Counted from the stretch's first letter, positions 3,238-61,696 are shown. The stretch is DNA of 64,000 nucleotides from an uncultured Candidatus Saccharibacteria bacterium (GCA_964531785.1 CAZHFF010000002.1:93851-157850), one strand, 5' to 3'. Numbers and translations are program-made. The notes: generated by a model from the letters alone, not told the origin.

Positions 3238-3879
3238 ATGCGGTACACACGAGCACACTATCTGGTACTCGGGCTCAATCTCGCGTACCTCATACCCTTC
3301 ACTGCGCTCTTTGTCGGGCAGGGAAACTACGAATTCTTGGGCTATGTCGCCCAGGTCGTGGTGCTCGGCATGCTCATCATCGCGACCCTCAACAGGACAG
3401 GGTTTCCGATCTGGCTGCTCGGCCTTCTGTCGGTCTGGTCCTTCCTCCACATGGCGGGCGGAGGTGTCGTGGTCGGGAATGAGGTCCTCTACCGTTATGT
3501 GCTCATCGACCTGTGGCGATCGGGCGAGGACGTCATTCTCAAGTTCGATCAGGTCCTCCACTTCTACGGGTTCTTTGTCGCGACGTTCGTTTCGTACTGG
3601 CTCCTTGTGCCGCAGCTTCGGCCAGGAGCACGTGTCGGTGTTGTTGCGTTCATTGCGGCCATGGCCGGTATGGGATTTGGAGCCTTGAACGAGGTGGTCG
3701 AGTTTACCGCGTACGCGCTCCTGCCTGCGACCGGAGTCGGTGGGTACCTCAACACGGCGCTCGATCTTGTGGCCAATGGGCTCGGGGCGATCGTTGCTGC
3801 GTTCGTGATCACGTTCAGCGGCATGGTACAAAAAGAGCCTGATAATACTGAGCTTGTCAATACTGCAGAGGTAGCGTAG
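3238..3879 (+). CDS. polytopic membrane protein (possibly DUF2238/YjdF-like)
   Basis: Internal ATG at 3238, 1 nt after the pgk stop. Multiple hydrophobic helices. Shares a D..LH..G / NE..E / D...N.LGA pattern with the 60905 gene. Confidence 0.6.
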   Translation: MRYTRAHYLVLGLNLAYLIPFTALFVGQGNYEFLGYVAQVVVLGMLIIATLNRTGFPIWLLGLLSVWSFLHMAGGGVVVGNEVLYRYVLIDLWRSGEDVILKFDQVLHFYGFFVATFVSYWLLVPQLRPGARVGVVAFIAAMAGMGFGALNEVVEFTAYALLPATGVGGYLNTALDLVANGLGAIVAAFVITFSGMVQKEPDNTELVNTAEVA

Positions 3880-4344: not shown

Positions 4345-4351
4345 TGGTTCC

Positions 4352-4774
4352 TTACGCATGCAGTGCGCGTATGGTCTGCCGGATCCGTTCACCTACAGCC
4401 TCAAGCTCGACTGGTGCTCCAGTATGCCCCTGCCAGTGCGTCAATCCGTCGTTCGTAAACCTCGGTATCAGATGGACATGCAGGTGCGGCACTTCCTGAC
4501 CGGCTGCGGCACCGTTGTTCATCTTTATGTTGATGCCGTCTGCTTTGACCGCCCGCATGACACAGGGCGCGAGGAAACGGACCGTTCGCATGACCGCTTG
4601 CCAGGTCTCTTCCGGTACGTCGAGCAGGTTCTCGTATACGACCTTCGGTACGACCAAGAGGTGACCGGGCGTATTCGGCGCAATGTCGAGGAATGCGCAG
4701 GTCGCGTCATCTTCATACACGATCACGGCAGGTACCTTGCGCGCTATGATCTTTTCGAACACGGTCGCTCCCAT
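4352..4774 (-). CDS. HIT-family nucleotide hydrolase
   Basis: HLHVHLIPR histidine-triad motif. The internal Met MGATVFEKIIARK is taken as the start. Confidence 0.9.
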   Translation of the reverse strand: MGATVFEKIIARKVPAVIVYEDDATCAFLDIAPNTPGHLLVVPKVVYENLLDVPEETWQAVMRTVRFLAPCVMRAVKADGINIKMNNGAAAGQEVPHLHVHLIPRFTNDGLTHWQGHTGAPVELEAVGERIRQTIRALHA

Positions 4775-16435: not shown

Positions 16436-16846
16436 ATGCCAACGATCAATCAGCTAGTTCGCAACCCGCGAAAGGACAAACCGACCAAGTCAAAAGTGCC
16501 TGCGCTGGGGCGCGGTTTCAACCTGCTTAAGAACAAGCCGACCATATACCCGGCTCCTTTCAAGCGCGGCGTCTGTGTCAAGGTGACCACTAAGACCCCC
16601 CGCAAGCCGAACTCTGCCGTTCGTAAGTATGCGCGTGTACGTTTGACCAACGGTATGGAGGTCTCCGCATACATTCCCGGCGAGGGACACAACCTGCAAG
16701 AACACTCAGTCGTGCTCATCCGCGGTGGTCGTGTGAAGGACGTCAACATCCGCTACACGATCGTGCGCGGTAAGCTCGACGCAACCGGCGTTGATAAGCG
16801 TAGGAAGGGGCGCTCCCTCTACGGCGCGAAGCGGCCTAAGGCATAA
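16436..16846 (+). CDS. rpsL: 30S ribosomal protein S12
   Basis: [13 protein letters not shown]...[20 protein letters not shown]. Confidence 0.97.
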
Positions 16847-16851
16847 TCACC

Positions 16852-17322
16852 ATGCGACGACCGATCAAGAAAAAGATACGCATAGCACCTGATAATCGCT
16901 ACCAGAGCGAGCGACTTTCGAAGTTCATCAACTGCGTGATGCTCGATGGGAAGAAGGAGACGGCTCGCAAGGTGGTCTATGATGCGCTCGAGCTCATTCG
17001 CAAAGCTGATGAGACCAAAGAACCGATCGAGGTGTTCGAGGATGCGATACGGAACGTTGGACCTACGGTCGAGGTGCGTAGCCGCCGCGTCGGCGGTGCG
17101 AACTATCAGGTTCCGCGCGAAGTGCGACCGGAGCGTCGGCAGGCCCTCGCCATGCGTTGGATACTCAATGCTGCTCGCAGCAAGAGTGGCGGTCCGACCT
17201 CGAAGTTCCTTGCAGATGAGATCCTTGCTGCGTCGAAGAACGAAGGCGCTGCTGTCAAGAAGCGCGAGGATGTGCATAAGATGGCGGAAGCCAACCGCGC
17301 GTTCGCGCACTTTGCTTGGTAA
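16852..17322 (+). CDS. rpsG: 30S ribosomal protein S7
   Basis: ...[23 protein letters not shown]...[10 protein letters not shown]. Confidence 0.97.
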
Positions 17323-17480
17323 AATAAAGCCCCTGCAAGGGGATTTATTTTACTTAGCAAATGCGGTGATGCCCCTTGCGGGTACGCGCACTTTGCCTGG
17401 TAATTTGGAGCTGCATAGCAGCGAACAAATTCCAGCTGCAAATGCGGTGATGCCCCTTGCGGGTACGCGCACTTTGCTTG
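17276..17480 (+). repeat. three copies of an rpsG-3'-end-derived unit at exact 81-nt period
   Basis: 17357-17396 and 17438-17477 are 40/40 identical. Their 3' 22 nt match the true rpsG end (17298-17319) with a few mismatches. Copy 1 even keeps the ...AHFAW-TAA reading. Confidence 0.85.
17323..17350 (+). terminator. hairpin + T-run directly after rpsG
   Basis: aaataaagcccctgcaaggggatttatttta. Confidence 0.6.
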
Positions 17481-17604
17481 CGACACAGACACCCCATACA
17501 GGGGTTTTGCTGTACTAAACCCGCGACCCGTTCGTAGGACAGGTCTGCGATGCGGTCGCCCGCATATGTGGCCGCAAAGACGCGCTTGGGTCTGTTGCGA
17601 ACAA

Positions 17605-17622
17605 GCGCGGCCCAGGCCGCGC
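17605..17622. terminator. GC hairpin flanked by T-rich runs on both strands
   Basis: gcgcggcc-cag-gccgcgc, with ttctctttat on plus and ttgttcgc on minus. It lies 7 nt past the stop of the 17629..17832 ORF. Confidence 0.5.
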
Positions 17623-17628
17623 TTCTCT

Positions 17629-17832
17629 TTATGTCTCCGCTTGTAAACGGAAGCCGTATTCTGCTGCCGCTCCGCGCTCGTCACCAGTGACAGCCCATCT
17701 GTTGCCTTGTGTGTCGAACACGATCGTGGTACCGGGTTTCGCCAGGTACGTGCCGGGGATGCCGCCTTCCGCGTCAACCCGACGGAAGTTCAGTTCATGA
17801 ATTATGCTGTAGTTCACTGTAGCTGGTTCCAC
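17629..17832 (-). CDS. small hypothetical protein (67 aa), antisense to the str operon
   Basis: GTG start with AAGAGGTGA 6 nt upstream. A hairpin follows the stop. No recognisable family. Confidence 0.45.
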   Translation of the reverse strand: MEPATVNYSIIHELNFRRVDAEGGIPGTYLAKPGTTIVFDTQGNRWAVTGDERGAAAEYGFRLQAET

Positions 17833-17916
17833 GGTCGCTCACCTCTTGCTGCGTCGTCTGTCCTCTATCTAAGCACTGAGCCAGGACACGCACAACCGGG
17901 CCAGCTTTGCAGGTGC

Positions 17917-17948
17917 TTGAGTCTTTTACCAACACACTGTATAGTGTG
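17917..17948 (+). promoter_or_regulatory. fusA promoter with overlapping inverted repeat
   Basis: TTGAGT - 17 nt - TATAGT. CACACT-gtat-AGTGTG (17933-17948) overlaps the -10. Confidence 0.5.
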
Positions 17949-17995
17949 CGCAACTCCCGCGTTTGCGGCTTTTTATTCAATTAGCTCGATCCCCT

Positions 17996-20146
17996 ATGAG
18001 TCGTGATTATCCACTAGAGCGCGTTCGTAACTTCGGCATCATCGCCCACATCGACGCGGGCAAGACCACCACATCCGAGCGCGTCCTCTTTTACACGGGG
18101 ATGAGCCATAAGATCGGTGAGGTGCACGAAGGTGCCACGGTGACCGACTGGATGGAACAGGAGCGTGAACGCGGCATTACCATCACCTCGGCAGCGATCA
18201 CCTGTTTCTGGACGAAGACCGGCGGGGACACGCAGAACAAGGACACCAAGTACCGGTTCAATATCATCGATACGCCAGGTCACATCGACTTCACTGCCGA
18301 GGTGCAGCGCTCGATGCGCGTTCTTGACGGCGCGGTCGTCGTCTTTGACGGCGTCGCCGGGGTGGAGCCGCAGAGCGAGACCAACTGGCGCTATGCTGAT
18401 GATGCGGATGTTCCGCGCGTTTGCTTCATTAATAAGCTCGACCGCACGGGTGCTTCGTTCGAGCGGAGCTACGCCTCGATCCTCGATCGTCTCTCGAAGA
18501 AGGCGGTCCGCATGCAGATCCCTATCGGGGAAGAGGATGGTCATGTTGGTGTCGTCGATCTCCTGACCCGCCAGGCGGTGTACTTCGAAGGCAATATGGG
18601 TATGGAGGTCCGCAAAGACGACACTATTCCAGAGGCGTTGCGCGCGGACGTCGAGAAGTTTCGTGCGGAGCTCATCGAGCGCATCGTCGAGAACGATGAG
18701 GCCATGATGAACGCGTACCTCGAGGGAACCGAGCCCTCACTTGAAGACCTCAAGAAGCTCCTGCGCAAAGCGGTGATCGCCAACGAGATATTCCCCGTAT
18801 TTTGCGGCTCTGCGCTCAAGAACAAGGGCGTGCAGCTCGTGCTCGACGGCGTTGTGGACTACCTTCCTTCGCCGCTCGACCTGCCTCCGGTCACTGGCAC
18901 TGACCCGAAGACCGAAGCAACGATCGAACGCCACGCTACCGATGATGAACCGTTCGCCGCACTGGCGTTCAAGATACAGGCAGACCCGTTCGTTGGTTCG
19001 CTCACCTTCTTCCGCGTGTACTCGGGCAAGCTCGAGGCCGGTTCCTACATCTACAACTCCACGACCGGCAACAAAGAGCGTGTGGGCCGCATCGTGCGCC
19101 TCCAGGCAGACAAGCGCGAGGACCTCAAGGTGGTCTATGCCGGCGAGATCGCGGCTGCGGTCGGCCTCAAGGATACCAAAACGAGCCACACCCTCTGCGA
19201 TGAAGCGAACCCTATCGTCCTCGAGCAGATCGTCTTTCCCGAGCCCGTTGTGTCGGTCCGCATCGAACCCAAGACCAAGGCTGACCAAGAAAAGATGGGC
19301 ATCGCGCTTAAAAAACTCGCCGATGAGGACCCGACGTTCCGCGTGTCGAGCGATGAGGAGACCAACGAAACGATCATCAGCGGTATGGGTGAGCTCCACC
19401 TCGACATTCTCGTGGACCGCATGAAGCGTGAGTTCAAGGTGGAGGCGAACATCGGCAGGCCACAGGTCGCCTACCGTGAGACCATTCAGCGAAGCGCCGA
19501 AGCGGAGTGTAAGTACATCAAGCAGACCGGTGGTCGCGGCCAGTACGGACATGTGAAGATCGCGATCAAGCCGCTCGAGCCCGCTGCGGAGGGCGAAAAG
19601 GTGGCGAAGAACGTGACCCGTGACGACCACTTTGAGTTCATAAACAACATCAAGGGCGGCGTCATCCCCCAAGAGTTCATCCCGGCCGTGCAGAAGGGCA
19701 TACGCGAGGCTATGGATCGCGGTATCGTCGCAGGCTTCAAAATGGTCGATGTTTCCGTGGATCTCTTCGATGGAAGCTACCACGACGTTGACTCGAGCGA
19801 GATTGCATACAAGATCGCGGGAAGCCAGGCATTTCAGGAAGCCGCGAAGAAGGCTGGAGCGGTTCTGCTTGAGCCGATCATGAAGGTCGAGGTCGTCGTG
19901 CCAGAGAAGTTCATGGGTGACATTAACGGCCACCTCTCGAGCAAGCGCGGACAGATCGAAGGTATGGAGCCGCGTGGCGTGGACATGCAGACGGTCAAAG
20001 CGAAGGTCCCGCTATCCGAGATGTTCGGGTACACGACGACCCTGCGCTCGATGACCGAGGGTCGCGGTCAGATGACCATGGAGTTCGACCACTACGCCGT
20101 GGTCCCGCCAAATGTCGCAGAGGAGATCAAGTCTGCGCGCGGCTAG
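17996..20146 (+). CDS. fusA: elongation factor G
   Basis: [20 protein letters not shown] and DTPGHIDF motifs; full five-domain length. Confidence 0.97.
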
Positions 20147-20149
20147 CGT

Positions 20150-20528
20150 ATACGGAAGCGACGCTGAGTATGAGCACGACACCCGGGGAGACCCGGGTTT
20201 CGCGTACAAGCCGTAGAAATGGAGCATACAATCGGAACAAGCTCCTTGCAGCATACCCTTCCAGAACACTGCACGAGCCGTGCAAGTAGGCGCCGCAACC
20301 CACCCTCGGGAGGAGGGTACGAAACCAGCTGATGTGTGGCGCATCTACAAGCAGTAGCTCTATAAGCAGAAACCGAAAACTGGCAGCGGTCAGCACCCTG
20401 GTTACCTCCACAGCCGGGGATAAACCCATGTTTCCTGCTGTGTGGCGTGTATACTTGCAGTAAGAGTCATGGGTTCTAGCCTCTCGAAGGCATCCTTGTT
20501 GGGCTACTGGGGTGCCTTCTTATTTATA
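20150..20528 (+). other. structured noncoding region downstream of fusA (possible ncRNA or 3'UTR element) ending in a terminator
   Basis: No credible ORF. Hairpins at 20182-97, 20221-45, 20270-84 and 20302-18. A long-range helix pairs 20423-30 with 20468-75. Terminator gaaggcatcc...ggggtgccttc + ttatttat lies at 20486-20528. Confidence 0.35.
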
Positions 20529-20650
20529 CAAAACAACAAAGCGCTAGTCTTATGAAGCACAACCTTTTATAAACCAATACATTTACCATGGCATTTACCG
20601 TGGCAATACGACTCCGCCATGTACCACAGCAATAATCATGCTCACTACGT

Positions 20651-20813
20651 ACACTATGAAGAGAACCTACCTGTACGGTGCCGTGGCTCTTGTGCTTTTG
20701 GTAGGCGCGGCGTATTTTTTATTCGTTCAACTACGGATATTCGATGTAGGGGATGAAAAGATGGTGCAAAATGATCCGACCGATGATCCGCTCGCAGAAG
20801 AAACGAAAAACGA
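20651..20813 (+). repeat. 163-nt direct repeat, copy 1 (5' module of paralog A)
   Basis: Matches 21287-21449 with 2 mismatches at an offset of 636 nt. Confidence 0.9.
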
Positions 20814-21237
20814 TGGTTCGGCTCAGTCTAATGGTGCCTCCGAAGGCTACACTGAATACCGCAATGAAAGCTTAGGTTTCGCGTTAAGCCTACCGCCCGG
20901 AGCGTCTGTCGATAAAGTACTGGACGACAACCACAATCGCCTTGTGACATTCGTCGCCGGCGAGAGGCGCTTTGAGGTGCGTGTCAAACAAGGCGGCTCG
21001 ATAGAACTCGACAGTTTCCACTATCTCGACTTCCCGCAGGCAGGCAAGAGCAGATTGGGGGGGAAGGACGCAGTTGTGTTCAAAGCGCCCAGCGGGTACT
21101 GTGACGGCCCAAAGTGCGGAGAGCCTTTTGTAGCTTACTCCACGAAGGTAAATGGCGACTTCTACAATCTGGTGTTTTTCGGAGACACAGAGGTGGATGC
21201 AACCGAAGATACTATCCTAAAGTCGTTTAAATTTTAG
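20656..21237 (+). CDS. signal-anchored hypothetical protein, paralog A
   Basis: MKRTYLYGAVALVLLVGAAYFLF anchor and an acidic linker. The C-terminal domain begins YTEYRNESLGFALSLPPG. AT-richer than the flanks. Confidence 0.7.
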   Translation: MKRTYLYGAVALVLLVGAAYFLFVQLRIFDVGDEKMVQNDPTDDPLAEETKNDGSAQSNGASEGYTEYRNESLGFALSLPPGASVDKVLDDNHNRLVTFVAGERRFEVRVKQGGSIELDSFHYLDFPQAGKSRLGGKDAVVFKAPSGYCDGPKCGEPFVAYSTKVNGDFYNLVFFGDTEVDATEDTILKSFKF

Positions 21238-21286
21238 CAACTCGACTATTATAAGCCGCTTAATTGTCAGTATTATGAGCAAACGA

Positions 21287-21449
21287 ACACTATGAAGAGA
21301 ACCTACCTATACGGTGCCGTGGCTCTTGTGCTTTTGGTAGGCGCGGCGTATTTTTTATTCGTTCAACTACGGATATTCGATGTAGGGGATGAAAAGATGG
21401 TGCAAAATGATCCGACCGATGATCCGCTCGCAGAAGAAACGAAAAATGA
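21287..21449 (+). repeat. 163-nt direct repeat, copy 2 (5' module of paralog B)
   Basis: Matches 20651-20813 with 2 mismatches. Confidence 0.9.
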
Positions 21450-21963
21450 AGATGTCGGCTCTGTGGCAGAAGAAGGATTGGAGGAAACGAATGCTTCTGG
21501 TATACGGACATATCGACATGAAGTATGGGGCATTGAGTTTCAGTATCCGGCACAATGGGGGGAGGTGAGAACCACCTTACCGAATCAACTTATGATAACT
21601 CCTCAAGGGGCCGATAAACATAAGATACTCATTTATATGAGCAAAGCTGAACCAACTGGGCTGAGGATTGACAAAATAGCGTACCTTCAGAAGGATCTCG
21701 ACTGTAGATTGGAACTTACGACGTATAGAAAATTAGGCGATGAGAGCTTCACCATTATACACATGCGAACAATGGAGGAAATGTTAGCGCAGGACGATTG
21801 TAATGTGCTATTCGAAAGCTTCCCGCCCGAGCGGAAAGACGAGAGGGCGAACGAGAGTCACAGGTATACACTAATCTTCCTTGAGGAATCCGAAATACCC
21901 GCACTCATGAACGACGATTATCAAAAGTTTAAGGGTATGGTTAATTCTTTCTCTGGTCTCTAA
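21292..21963 (+). CDS. signal-anchored hypothetical protein, paralog B
   Basis: The first 52 aa are identical to paralog A. The C-terminal domain is unrelated in sequence (IRTYRHEVWGIEFQYPAQW...). Confidence 0.7.
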   Translation: MKRTYLYGAVALVLLVGAAYFLFVQLRIFDVGDEKMVQNDPTDDPLAEETKNEDVGSVAEEGLEETNASGIRTYRHEVWGIEFQYPAQWGEVRTTLPNQLMITPQGADKHKILIYMSKAEPTGLRIDKIAYLQKDLDCRLELTTYRKLGDESFTIIHMRTMEEMLAQDDCNVLFESFPPERKDERANESHRYTLIFLEESEIPALMNDDYQKFKGMVNSFSGL

Positions 21964-40674: not shown

Positions 40675-41001
40675 TCAGTCGACGCGGCTGCCGTCAGGAC
40701 GGATGTAGAACTCCACACCATCTTTTTCGGCCAATGCTAGGCCTTTAGAAAAGTCGCTGACCGCATCGAACCGTTCTGCATACGCAGGGGAGCCGTCGTG
40801 ACAGATATGGAACTCCTCGCCATCCTTCATGACCCATGCCAAGTCTCCTTCTTCGAAGGGGGCGACCATATCGTATCGCTCCTGGTATGCAGGGGAGCCG
40901 TCTGGAAGGATATGGAACTCCTGGCCGTTTTTTCTGACACACGCAAAGCCGTCATGACAGTCGACGACCAGATCATATTTAACCTTACCTACTTTCGGCA
41001 T
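40675..41001 (-). CDS. WG-repeat-like small protein
   Basis: Three repeats of F..V.K.G.EF.I..DGSPAY.ERFD.V..F..G.A. AAAGGAGAA Shine-Dalgarno. Confidence 0.6.
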   Translation of the reverse strand: MPKVGKVKYDLVVDCHDGFACVRKNGQEFHILPDGSPAYQERYDMVAPFEEGDLAWVMKDGEEFHICHDGSPAYAERFDAVSDFSKGLALAEKDGVEFYIRPDGSRVD

Positions 41002-46875: not shown

Positions 46876-46878
46876 TAA

Positions 46879-46922
46879 GTCAAAACAAAATACCGGCCAT
46901 CAGGCCGGTATTTTGTTTTGAC
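46879..46922. terminator. 20-bp perfect-stem hairpin after rpsJ
   Basis: gtcaaaacaaaataccggcc-atca-ggccggtattttgttttgac. Confidence 0.7.
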
Positions 46923-47205
46923 TGTCTTATATCCTGCATACCCTCTATGCGCTTCGTAGCCTCGGCGGAAAAGCGGGCGAAGCAAGGGGGTCGGGGGTAG
47001 TTTTCTTGCACCGCGTAGCCTCGGTCGAGATGAGATAGAGCATGTCCGATGCGGTGTGGGGCGGGTAAAGCAAACAGCGCACCGAACTGGATACGCTTTT
47101 TCAAGGTTGGTACGCAGTGTCGGTTTATCACTAGTTAAGGAGAAAAGCGCCAGCCGAACTGAATACGCCTTGGTTGCAGAACACTAATCTGCCTAGAGAA
47201 GGTGC

Positions 47206-60904: not shown

Positions 60905-61321
60905 ATGCGTTTAACCCGCGTGTTCCTTGCGTCGGCGATCGTACTCTGGACGCTCGCGTCCGTTCACCTCACCGGTGTCTACCTGTCGTGGTACGAGCGG
61001 TTTGCGTGGTTCGATCTGCTTACCCATCTGCAGGGCGGTGTGTGGCTCGGCATGATCCTGCTCTACCTCGCGATCCGTTCGGGTGTTGTCGCTCCAGAGC
61101 GCGTCCGATCCTCGCACACACGTGGTCTTGTCTTGGCAGGCGCCCTTGTTGTTGGGCTGCTCTGGGAAGGGTATGAGGTGGTCGTTTGGCAGGTGACCAG
61201 GTTCGGTATACCGGCAGACTACCTCACGGACACATTCCTTGACCTGGGTATGGATATGTTAGGCGCTCTTGTCGGGTACCTGATCGCACGTACGATATGG
61301 GTTCGAGGCTCTAGCAAGTAA
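60905..61321 (+). CDS. membrane protein, distant paralog of the 3238 gene
   Basis: 4-TM protein with DLLTHLQGG, WEGYEVVVW and FLDLGMDMLGALVGY patterns. TATACT lies 6 nt upstream of the ATG. Confidence 0.55.
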   Translation: MRLTRVFLASAIVLWTLASVHLTGVYLSWYERFAWFDLLTHLQGGVWLGMILLYLAIRSGVVAPERVRSSHTRGLVLAGALVVGLLWEGYEVVVWQVTRFGIPADYLTDTFLDLGMDMLGALVGYLIARTIWVRGSSK

Positions 61322-61348
61322 CAAACCGGCCCAAAGAGGGCCGCTTTG

Positions 61349-61696
61349 TTACTTGGTGACTTCCTCTACAATACGCTTGAACGTTTCCGGCTGGTCCTTG
61401 GCGAGCTCTGCAAGCATTTTGCGGTTGATCTCGATGTGCTTGCTCTTCAATACGCTGATGAACTTACTATAGGAAAGGCCGAACGGTCGGACGCCTGCAT
61501 TGATACGTAGGGACCAGAGCGCACGGAAATCACCCTTCTTCTTTTTGCGGTGCTGGAATGCGTGGTTGCCCGCATGTGCGAGTACCTCGTTCGCCTGGCG
61601 TTCCTTCTTGCGGATATTACCCCGCATGCCCTTCGTCCGCTCCAGGACATTGTGGCGGTGTTTGAGCTTGGTTGTGCCTCGTTTAACGCGTGCCAT
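61349..61696 (-). CDS. rplT: 50S ribosomal protein L20
   Basis: MARVKRGTTKLKHRHNVLE... Confidence 0.96.
   Translation of the reverse strand: MARVKRGTTKLKHRHNVLERTKGMRGNIRKKERQANEVLAHAGNHAFQHRKKKKGDFRALWSLRINAGVRPFGLSYSKFISVLKSKHIEINRKMLAELAKDQPETFKRIVEEVTK

Follow-up and report, generated by a model that had tools for sequence, protein, structure and literature searches.

The window analysed here is a 64,000-nucleotide (nt) stretch of DNA from an uncultured Candidatus Saccharibacteria bacterium (GCA_964531785.1, CAZHFF010000002.1:93851–157850), and the region in question is the 3′ side of its rpsG gene, which encodes ribosomal protein S7 and lies directly downstream of rpsL (16436–16846). 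Homologues of the S7 protein place the organism among Paceibacteria-like bacteria of the candidate phyla radiation (CPR). Beyond the stop codon the end of rpsG recurs twice, and three rpsG 3′ termini stand in a row: the working terminus (O1), an intact displaced terminus (O2) and a truncated one (O3). Each terminus still precedes its own post-stop hairpin: O1 is followed by S1, O2 by S2 and O3 by a terminator-like hairpin. The locus is read as a stack in which O2 and O3 are vestiges left behind by ectopic recombination and gene conversion, an explanation that is favoured here with some reserve. The features of the stack are as follows, in window coordinates; labels such as L006 denote related rpsG loci, which are described below.

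16852–17322, + strand: rpsG, ribosomal protein S7, 156 amino acids (aa), from the list of open reading frames (ORFs); homologues with PF00177, and 100% identity with P0001.
17303–17369, + strand: long hairpin 1, in which the last ~18 nt of rpsG and the stop codon are paired with the arm a′, GCAAATGCG (17357–17365), enclosing S1.
17304–17322, + strand: O1, the working rpsG terminus CGCGCACTTTGCTTGGTAA, encoding A-H-F-A-W-stop, the last 19 nt of the gene.
17323–17356, both strands: S1 (spacer 1), a bidirectional hairpin resembling an intrinsic terminator, with the core CCCCTGCAAGGGG (17330–17342) between A and T runs, from the terminator scan.
17357–17396, + strand: first copy of the 40-mer, made up of the a′ arm, the hairpin top GATGCCCCTTGCGGGTA and the first 12 nt of O2.
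17385–17403, + strand: O2, the displaced intact rpsG terminus CGCGCACTTTGCCTGGTAA, in the rpsG frame and with one synonymous change relative to O1.
17404–17437, + strand: S2 (spacer 2), a hairpin lacking a U run, with a predicted fold of −17.7 kcal/mol (z −4.8).
17438–17477, + strand: second copy of the 40-mer, identical to the first at 40/40 positions.
17466–17480, + strand: O3, the truncated terminus CGCGCACTTTGCTTG, read as the oldest, which is orthologous to the ...TTGCCTGATAG pseudo-end of L006 and L180.
17491–17510, + strand: terminator-like hairpin CCCCATACAGGGG followed by TTTTG, at the same place as the terminator that closes the rpsG 3′ untranslated region (UTR) in L006 and L180.

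The repeated element of the stack is the 40-mer GCAAATGCGGTGATGCCCCTTGCGGGTACGCGCACTTTGC, whose copies at 17357–17396 and 17438–17477 differ by 0 mismatches. These two copies are the only matches in the 64-kb window at up to three mismatches (0 of 100 shuffled sequences matched), a window search with the 18-nt core of the 40-mer had the same outcome, and short-word BLAST found no weaker copies elsewhere in the window. The repeat finder widened the repeat to 43 nt, with 98% identity between the two copies, and placed a third copy, 63% identical, in register within rpsG (17276–17318); the start-to-start distances of the three copies are 81 and 81 nt. Because 81 nt equals 27 codons, copy 1 is translated as ...GYAHFAW-stop in the rpsG frame. 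The string CGCGCACTTTGCYTG(GTAA) is present three times, and its most upstream copy completes rpsG. The period follows from 47 shared nt together with two post-stop hairpins that are both 34 nt long, and these two intervening segments (17323–17356 and 17404–17437) are unrelated in sequence, matching at 11 of 34 positions by hand count. Tandem Repeats Finder reported nothing, as would be expected when the likeness between units covers only about half of each. An earlier sequence-only reading of this DNA had described an exact 40-nt repeat at 81-nt spacing with the real rpsG end 81 nt upstream, which the sequence search confirmed; it had also derived the repeat from the rpsG 3′ end, and the 19-nt terminus does recur, once intact and once truncated. 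Its argument that plain tandem duplication is insufficient holds as well, and that origin was rejected here, since the units are not homologous over their full length.

Arm a′ (GCAAATGCG), on the 5′ side of the 40-mer, is complementary in inverted orientation to the rpsG end (CGCACTTTGC), and the 40-mer, as well as each spacer with its flanks, is therefore predicted to form hairpins. On its own the 40-mer has a predicted hairpin of −16.5 kcal/mol (z −1.5). Long hairpin 1 corresponds to an inverted repeat, I1, with 24-nt arms that are 88% complementary, and of its two predicted folds one is at −30.3 kcal/mol (z −6.7) and the other at −32.9 kcal/mol (z −5.4); a similar long hairpin is predicted from the second terminus, S2 and the next a′ (−30 kcal/mol, z −3.8). 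Folding the array as RNA, as the sequence-only reading had proposed, gave a structure dominated by two long palindromes, each with a spacer at its centre (−98.9 to −106.7 kcal/mol, z −5.5). In the terminator scan, CCCCTGCAAGGGG followed by ATTTATTTTA scores on the + strand (17330–17351) and a mirror site scores on the − strand, with a G+C stem-loop and then a U run, in agreement with the earlier suggestion that one of the spacers is the rpsG terminator hairpin. S1 thus resembles known bidirectional intrinsic terminators in having a G+C stem between A and T runs that scores on both strands, but differs from them in that the stem enters the coding sequence by ~18 nt and crosses the stop codon, and in that its arm is re-used with a second copy of the terminus. 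Ahead of both displaced termini, a segment of ~28 nt (a′ plus the top) is identical. Elsewhere in the window, long near-perfect palindromes at 46878–46923 and 61315–61355 (18–21-nt arms, 94–100% complementary) are also shaped like bidirectional terminators, and extended palindromic terminators seem to be a style of this genome.

The rpsG–fusA junction was compared with loci whose S7 proteins are 79–89% identical to that of the window and with more distant ones, a comparison also suggested by the sequence-only reading, and both one-unit and two-terminus forms were found. The working end and S1 (17276–17352) are 80–81% identical, by BLAST, to the rpsG end and terminator of L001-5 and L171-5, and BLAST and alignments identify S1 as orthologous to the rpsG terminator of L171, L178, L177 and L001. 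The second part of the array has a different set of counterparts. The segment 17386–17480 (O2, S2 and copy 2) is 72% identical by BLAST to L006 2164–2254, which consists of the real rpsG end of that locus, the hairpin after its stop codon and another hairpin of 40 nt with GCACACTTTGCCTGATAG at its end. The one-unit layout of L006 is also that of L180, and alignments show S2 to be orthologous to the segment after the real rpsG stop codon in both; the first 13 nt of S2 are identical in L178, and the CGAC that follows O3 is also found in L180. In L178, the working end and an S1-like terminator are followed by an insert, and ~200 nt downstream stand AAGCACTTTGCCTGGTAG and then TTTGGAGCTGCAT, a stretch that is identical to O2 and the start of S2 in the window at 28 of 29 positions. 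The alignment shows that L171 and L178 carry unit 1 of the window with an insert of ~125 nt within the hairpin top. This placement, together with the 28/29 match, indicates that the two-terminus layout is common to the window and the L171/L178 lineage. The framing of the locus as repeat and spacer, as first proposed, is not upheld by these data, because each spacer is orthologous to native post-stop rpsG sequence in some relative.

Displaced termini lie downstream of the rpsG stop codon at +62 in L006, at about +200 in L171 and L178, at +97 in L094 and at +1086 in L097. In L094, the working end and a terminator are followed by GCAAAATGG, which is the complement of its own rpsG end, then by 47 nt, by CACTTTGCTTGGTAA with its own stop codon, and by a second terminator. 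L097, a Kaiserbacteria metagenome-assembled genome (MAG; JACQBN010000018, 2938–4067), has a 1086-nt insert between the working rpsG end and the 27-nt copy AAGGCCTTTGCCCACTTTGCCTGGTAA; the insert contains two + strand ORFs (159 and 184 aa), both with a hydrophobic segment at the N-terminus, and the copy has three differences in the aligned 26-nt block, all of them synonymous. In this MAG, rpsG is followed by ispG rather than fusA. Shuffle tests for direct copies of the terminus within 300 nt past the stop codon gave p values of 0–0.04 in the window, L006, L171, L094 and L178, and no displaced termini were found in lineages in which fusA directly follows rpsG. Between real and displaced termini of five lineages there are 12 differences, 10 at the third codon position and nine synonymous (binomial P = 5e-4). 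The hairpin is absent from several close relatives (L176, L177, L001 and L196). A search with the hairpin pattern gave 0 matches in a genome-contig collection of which the source genome is not a member.

Three layouts can be recognised among these loci: rpsG-O-S2-hairpin in L006 and L180, rpsG-O1-S1-hairpin-O2-S2 and further sequence in L178 and L171, and rpsG-O1-S1-hairpin-O2-S2-hairpin-O3 in the window. Since these layouts would be interconvertible by a crossover between a working and a vestigial terminus, ectopic homologous recombination is favoured as the mechanism by which the stack was built. Unequal homologous recombination would have paired the working terminus of one allele with the vestigial terminus of another allele or of a sister chromosome, in a clade in which the rpsG–fusA spacer turns over quickly. 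If an L178-type allele underwent one exchange with an L006-type allele at their common terminus and S2 segment, the window array could result, while a deletion between O1 and O2 would restore the L006 type. The two 40-mers may then have been made identical by gene conversion or by recent re-duplication. We infer the order of events as well, with O3 as the oldest terminus. With lower confidence, S1 would end the rpsL-rpsG transcript and probably also incoming minus-strand transcripts, and the rest of the array would contribute very stable long predicted hairpins and at most a 3′-end structure. Ectopic recombination, gene conversion and vestiges left by in-situ allele replacement are general features of bacterial genome evolution, and the explanation is mostly an ordinary one: vestigial gene ends stacked at a hypervariable operon junction of a CPR bacterium. 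Known ectopic homologous recombination between short direct repeats likewise accounts for gain and loss of units, for the S1/S2 mosaic, for identical 40-mers and for terminus differences that are mostly synonymous. In the present case, however, the homology (15–24 nt, or ~30–50 nt with S2) is short for a RecA-type exchange, the stack is unusually regular, and at least one vestige has a compensatory change, suggesting later constraint. Of the origins listed in the sequence-only reading, a gene-end-restoring one fits best, and it stands to the extent that displaced termini recur in at least five lineages with mainly synonymous differences.

Several observations weigh against recombination as a complete account. 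Among the window, L006 and L180, the module of S2 plus hairpin shows 65–73% identity, where a gapped null gives ~48% (0 of 500 shuffles reached the observed level), and the third codon positions of rpsG in the same three loci are less conserved than this module (45–48% identical). Between L006 and L180, the base of the stem changes from CAAAATG/CACTTTG to CAACATG/CATGTTG, which amounts to one compensatory pair and one repaired mismatch. The change in L180 makes the vestige non-synonymous. Such a compensatory change points to some selection on the structure, and a structural role in the 3′ UTR is possible. The predominance of third-position differences would also arise if vestiges were held constant while the working end drifted synonymously. 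The stack appears to be old, being common to L178, with which the window shares only ~50% of rpsG third codon positions; since the 40-mers are nonetheless 40/40 identical, gene conversion or a recent second event has to be added to the explanation. The exact length of 34 nt of both S1 and S2, which are unrelated, is a mild coincidence, with perhaps a 10–20% chance of a match, and S-type segments in relatives are ~30–34 nt long by hand count. Finally, the comparison covers about ten related lineages, none at strain level, and includes no reads.

The conservation of the S2 and hairpin module above rpsG third positions, and a compensatory change that preserves the stem between a′ and the displaced terminus although the latter became non-synonymous, could potentially be explained by a functional RNA element in the rpsG 3′ UTR. 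In such an element, a′ would pair either with the working terminus, in the long hairpin around the stop codon, or with the decoy terminus, in the 40-mer hairpin. A ribosome arriving at the stop codon would switch the fold downstream and thereby affect termination or the stability of the mRNA. Selection would have maintained the decoy termini as exapted vestiges, and two units of this kind would be present in the window. In seven independent contexts, the rpsG end is predicted to pair with an arm further downstream, whose sequence differs from one context to the next and fits its own terminus (z −3.6 to −6.2). Arm a′ tracks the synonymous state of the working terminus in L006, L094 and L171/L178, and the 28/29 agreement of O2 and the start of S2 with L178 can be counted on the same side. 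A model of this kind is nevertheless rather unlikely. S1, a canonical terminator, stands ahead of the rest of the array in the window, and most + strand transcripts should therefore stop before reaching it. The long palindromes are favoured in every folding state, the 40-mer alone is not unusually stable at the z score given above, RNAalifold on three sequences gave a covariation term of ~0, and the hairpin is lacking in the four relatives already named. No Rfam 15 family matched at gathering thresholds anywhere in the 64-kb window; at E ≤ 5, only two chance-level matches (an animal miRNA and an animal lncRNA) were returned for 17200–18000 and nothing meaningful for 20100–20700. A ribosome-driven toggle between conformers in the window was rejected, because masking the terminus that a ribosome would cover brings out no 40-mer hairpins and leaves the last hairpin unchanged. 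The stricter proposal, that the displaced termini are exapted decoys in a conserved Paceibacteria 3′-UTR device that couples arrival of the ribosome at the S7 stop codon, sequestered when a′ pairs with the working terminus, to downstream termination or mRNA decay, and that is doubled in the window, is unlikely; if true, a fossil gene end would here have been turned into a translation-sensing element. With its one compensatory change and a conservation above that of synonymous sites, the vestige-bearing hairpin is a candidate for a new 3′-UTR RNA motif, with evidence from three to five lineages. An autoregulatory mRNA site that mimics the S7-binding region of 16S rRNA was also considered: with E. 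coli 16S rRNA as the reference in place of that of the host, local alignments to the 40-mer, to both 81-nt units and to the L006 and L180 hairpins gave p values of 0.15–1.0 against shuffled sequences, and thus no significant similarity. A decoy for a factor that binds the rpsG 3′ region, a further origin named in the sequence-only reading, finds no support in this comparison.

Direct repeats of the 3′ end of a target gene, with the gene end restored, are also the classic signature of an attachment (att) site, and such a pattern is present here. The locus might accordingly be taken for the scars of serial site-specific integration at the rpsG 3′ end, with accretion like that of cis-mobilizable elements (CIMEs) and with the palindrome of a′, top and terminus as the recombination site; recombinase sites are often imperfect palindromes, and so is the repeated segment. 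Duplicated att sites and the tandem accretion of decayed elements, documented among others at streptococcal rpsI and rpmG (PMC5704250; PMC5357655), are the closest documented analogue, which shares with the window direct repeats that copy the final nucleotides of a conserved gene, an upstream copy that restores the gene end, a tandem stack, and relatives with one and two units. The two-gene insert of 1.1 kb between 27-nt terminus duplicates in L097 fits this pattern as well. Unlike CIME sites, however, the window array has only 62–66 nt between its repeats, and these are native rpsG 3′-UTR hairpin sequence rather than DNA of an element. No integrase or other recognisable gene was found in the spacer ORFs of the window and its relatives, nor in the ten window ORFs tested within ~10 kb, and, except in L097, no terminus copies flank the large, variable ORFan cargo of relatives. 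Viral contigs contained 0 matches to GCNTTYGCNCAYTTYGCNTGGTAR, the pattern of an AFAHFAW-stop terminus, and no phage attachment site (attP) made of the rpsG terminus was thus found in them; the 10 matches of a degenerate hairpin pattern in the same contigs lack hairpin context and are attributed to chance. ARAGORN found no tRNA or tmRNA in the 64-kb window, so the site is not an att site of the tRNA type. On these grounds, repeated site-specific integration and excision, another origin suggested by the sequence-only reading, is an improbable account of the stack. The locus could instead be an assembly artefact, either a spurious duplication of the 81-nt unit or a concatenation of strain variants with an S1 and an S2 allele, given that the window is a MAG contig and that exact repeats of 40 nt and strain variation typically trouble assemblers. 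From the way k-mer assemblers work, the junction GGGTACGCGCACTTTGCCTGGTAATTTGG should not arise from an S1 and an S2 allele if no reads contain it; moreover, the equivalent junction (half of the hairpin, the displaced terminus, a stop codon and the start of S2) occurs in L178, which was assembled independently, and one-unit forms have been assembled repeatedly from different samples, which makes an artefact very improbable. A mini-array of clustered regularly interspaced short palindromic repeats (CRISPR), or a mobile palindrome of the repetitive extragenic palindromic (REP) or miniature inverted-repeat transposable element (MITE) type that resembles the rpsG end by chance, is scarcely credible. 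The geometry is admittedly similar, with a 40-nt, partly palindromic repeat and a 41-nt spacer of the lengths seen in CRISPR arrays, and REP-like elements are hairpins that follow stop codons. The spacers here, however, belong natively to the locus and have their orthologues at the corresponding position in relatives, and the repeat is a gene end present in two full copies only. Its similarity to rpsG extends past the 40-mer into TGGTAA and then S2. No Cas or defence matches were obtained among the ten ORFs at 11.9–27.6 kb and the spacer ORF. Both copies of the 40-mer lie at this one locus, and within the window it is thus not the dispersed REP-like element that the sequence-only reading had named as the finding that would overturn its view.

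We know of no report of rpsG as an integration site. If the stack was built by ectopic recombination, it is a small-scale record of the repeated replacement of the end of an essential gene in CPR bacteria, with old termini pushed downstream like growth rings beside a spacer that acquires ORFans. Such records could be used to read recombination and gene flow in genomes available only from metagenomes. They are also a caution for annotators and for users of CRISPR and repeat finders, as vestiges of gene ends can give a regular repeat-spacer geometry.

Some narrower derivations of individual parts of the repeat were considered and set aside. For the 5′ half of the 40-mer, descent from upstream rpsG codons by direct copying and divergence is not supported (p = 0.5 in the window, and no better elsewhere); the in-register AAAATGG of L006 is uninformative in this respect, because Lys-Met-Ala codons by nature complement Ala-His-Phe codons. 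That the decoy terminus arose from a′ by fold-back copying was rejected, as O2 is closer to the working terminus than to the complement of a′ and continues into TGGTAA and native S2. A 13-nt match to the L006 hairpin at 20217, AAATGGAGCATAC, has an E value of 0.13 and was taken as chance.

The remainder of the rpsG–fusA spacer comprises two further features.

17511–17916: lineage-specific filler of the spacer, without a counterpart in relatives.
17917–17995, + strand: conserved promoter-like site of fusA (TTGAGT-17-TATAGT) with a leader hairpin and then TTTTTATTCA.

The filler holds one ORF of 67 aa on the − strand (17629–17832) with no family match. The gap between rpsG and fusA ranges from 5 to 2090 nt in relatives, whose spacers contain ORFs of 69–163 aa, mostly on the minus strand (L171 3330–4887, L176 781–1215, L177 3143–3586, L178 3766–4419 and L001 3824–4306). 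None of these ORFs is present in the window, those of L001 and L171 proved mutually unrelated in pairwise comparison, and no Pfam or PADLOC match was found for the spacer ORFs of the window, L001, L171, L176 and L177. This points to the rpsG–fusA spacer as a hypervariable ORFan hotspot inside the str operon. In L001, a 596-nt segment with a minus-strand ORFan of 160 aa lies between 19-nt direct repeats, CCCCTTGAGTATTMCGTCA (3750–3768 and 4346–4364), which reproduce the −35 region of the fusA promoter; this cassette provides a second case in which duplicated local sequence borders an insert. In L171, the gene of the 163-aa ORFan contains a perfect 21-nt tandem duplication at 4430–4471 (TATATTTTTGCTCGTGCTTCG twice), which is translated as a repeated peptide, EARAKIY.

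At the other end of the spacer, fusA is listed as an ORF from 17963, while its true ATG is at 17996. The upstream region consists of CCCCTTGAGT, 17 nt, TATAGT, a conserved tetraloop hairpin with a 4-bp stem (CCGC-NNNN-GCGG) and TTTTTATTCA, ~20 nt ahead of the start codon. The promoter-like motif is conserved and is also found in L001 (~4346–4420), L006 (~2405–2480), L176 (~1275–1345), L180, L182 and L196. No Rfam family corresponds to the leader hairpin, which in this clade could serve EF-G as a leader terminator or an attenuator.

Other repeats and segments of the window lie outside the rpsG–fusA junction. Directly after fusA and before a drop in G+C content, a segment of ~490 nt (20147–20637) has no convincing ORF and no Rfam match at E ≤ 5. 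It is followed by a 167-nt direct repeat that is 98% identical (20647–20813 and 21283–21449) and that makes up the 5′ ends of two neighbouring low-GC ORFs, 20638–21237 and 21292–21963. The two encoded proteins have an identical N-terminus of ~52 aa, made up of a membrane anchor and an acidic linker, and unrelated C-terminal parts; neither ORF has a Pfam match, and the shared N-terminal module looks like the result of cassette-style shuffling or gene conversion. A further direct repeat of 85 nt, 73% identical and with a spacing of 105 nt, is located at 40759–40843 and 40864–40948.

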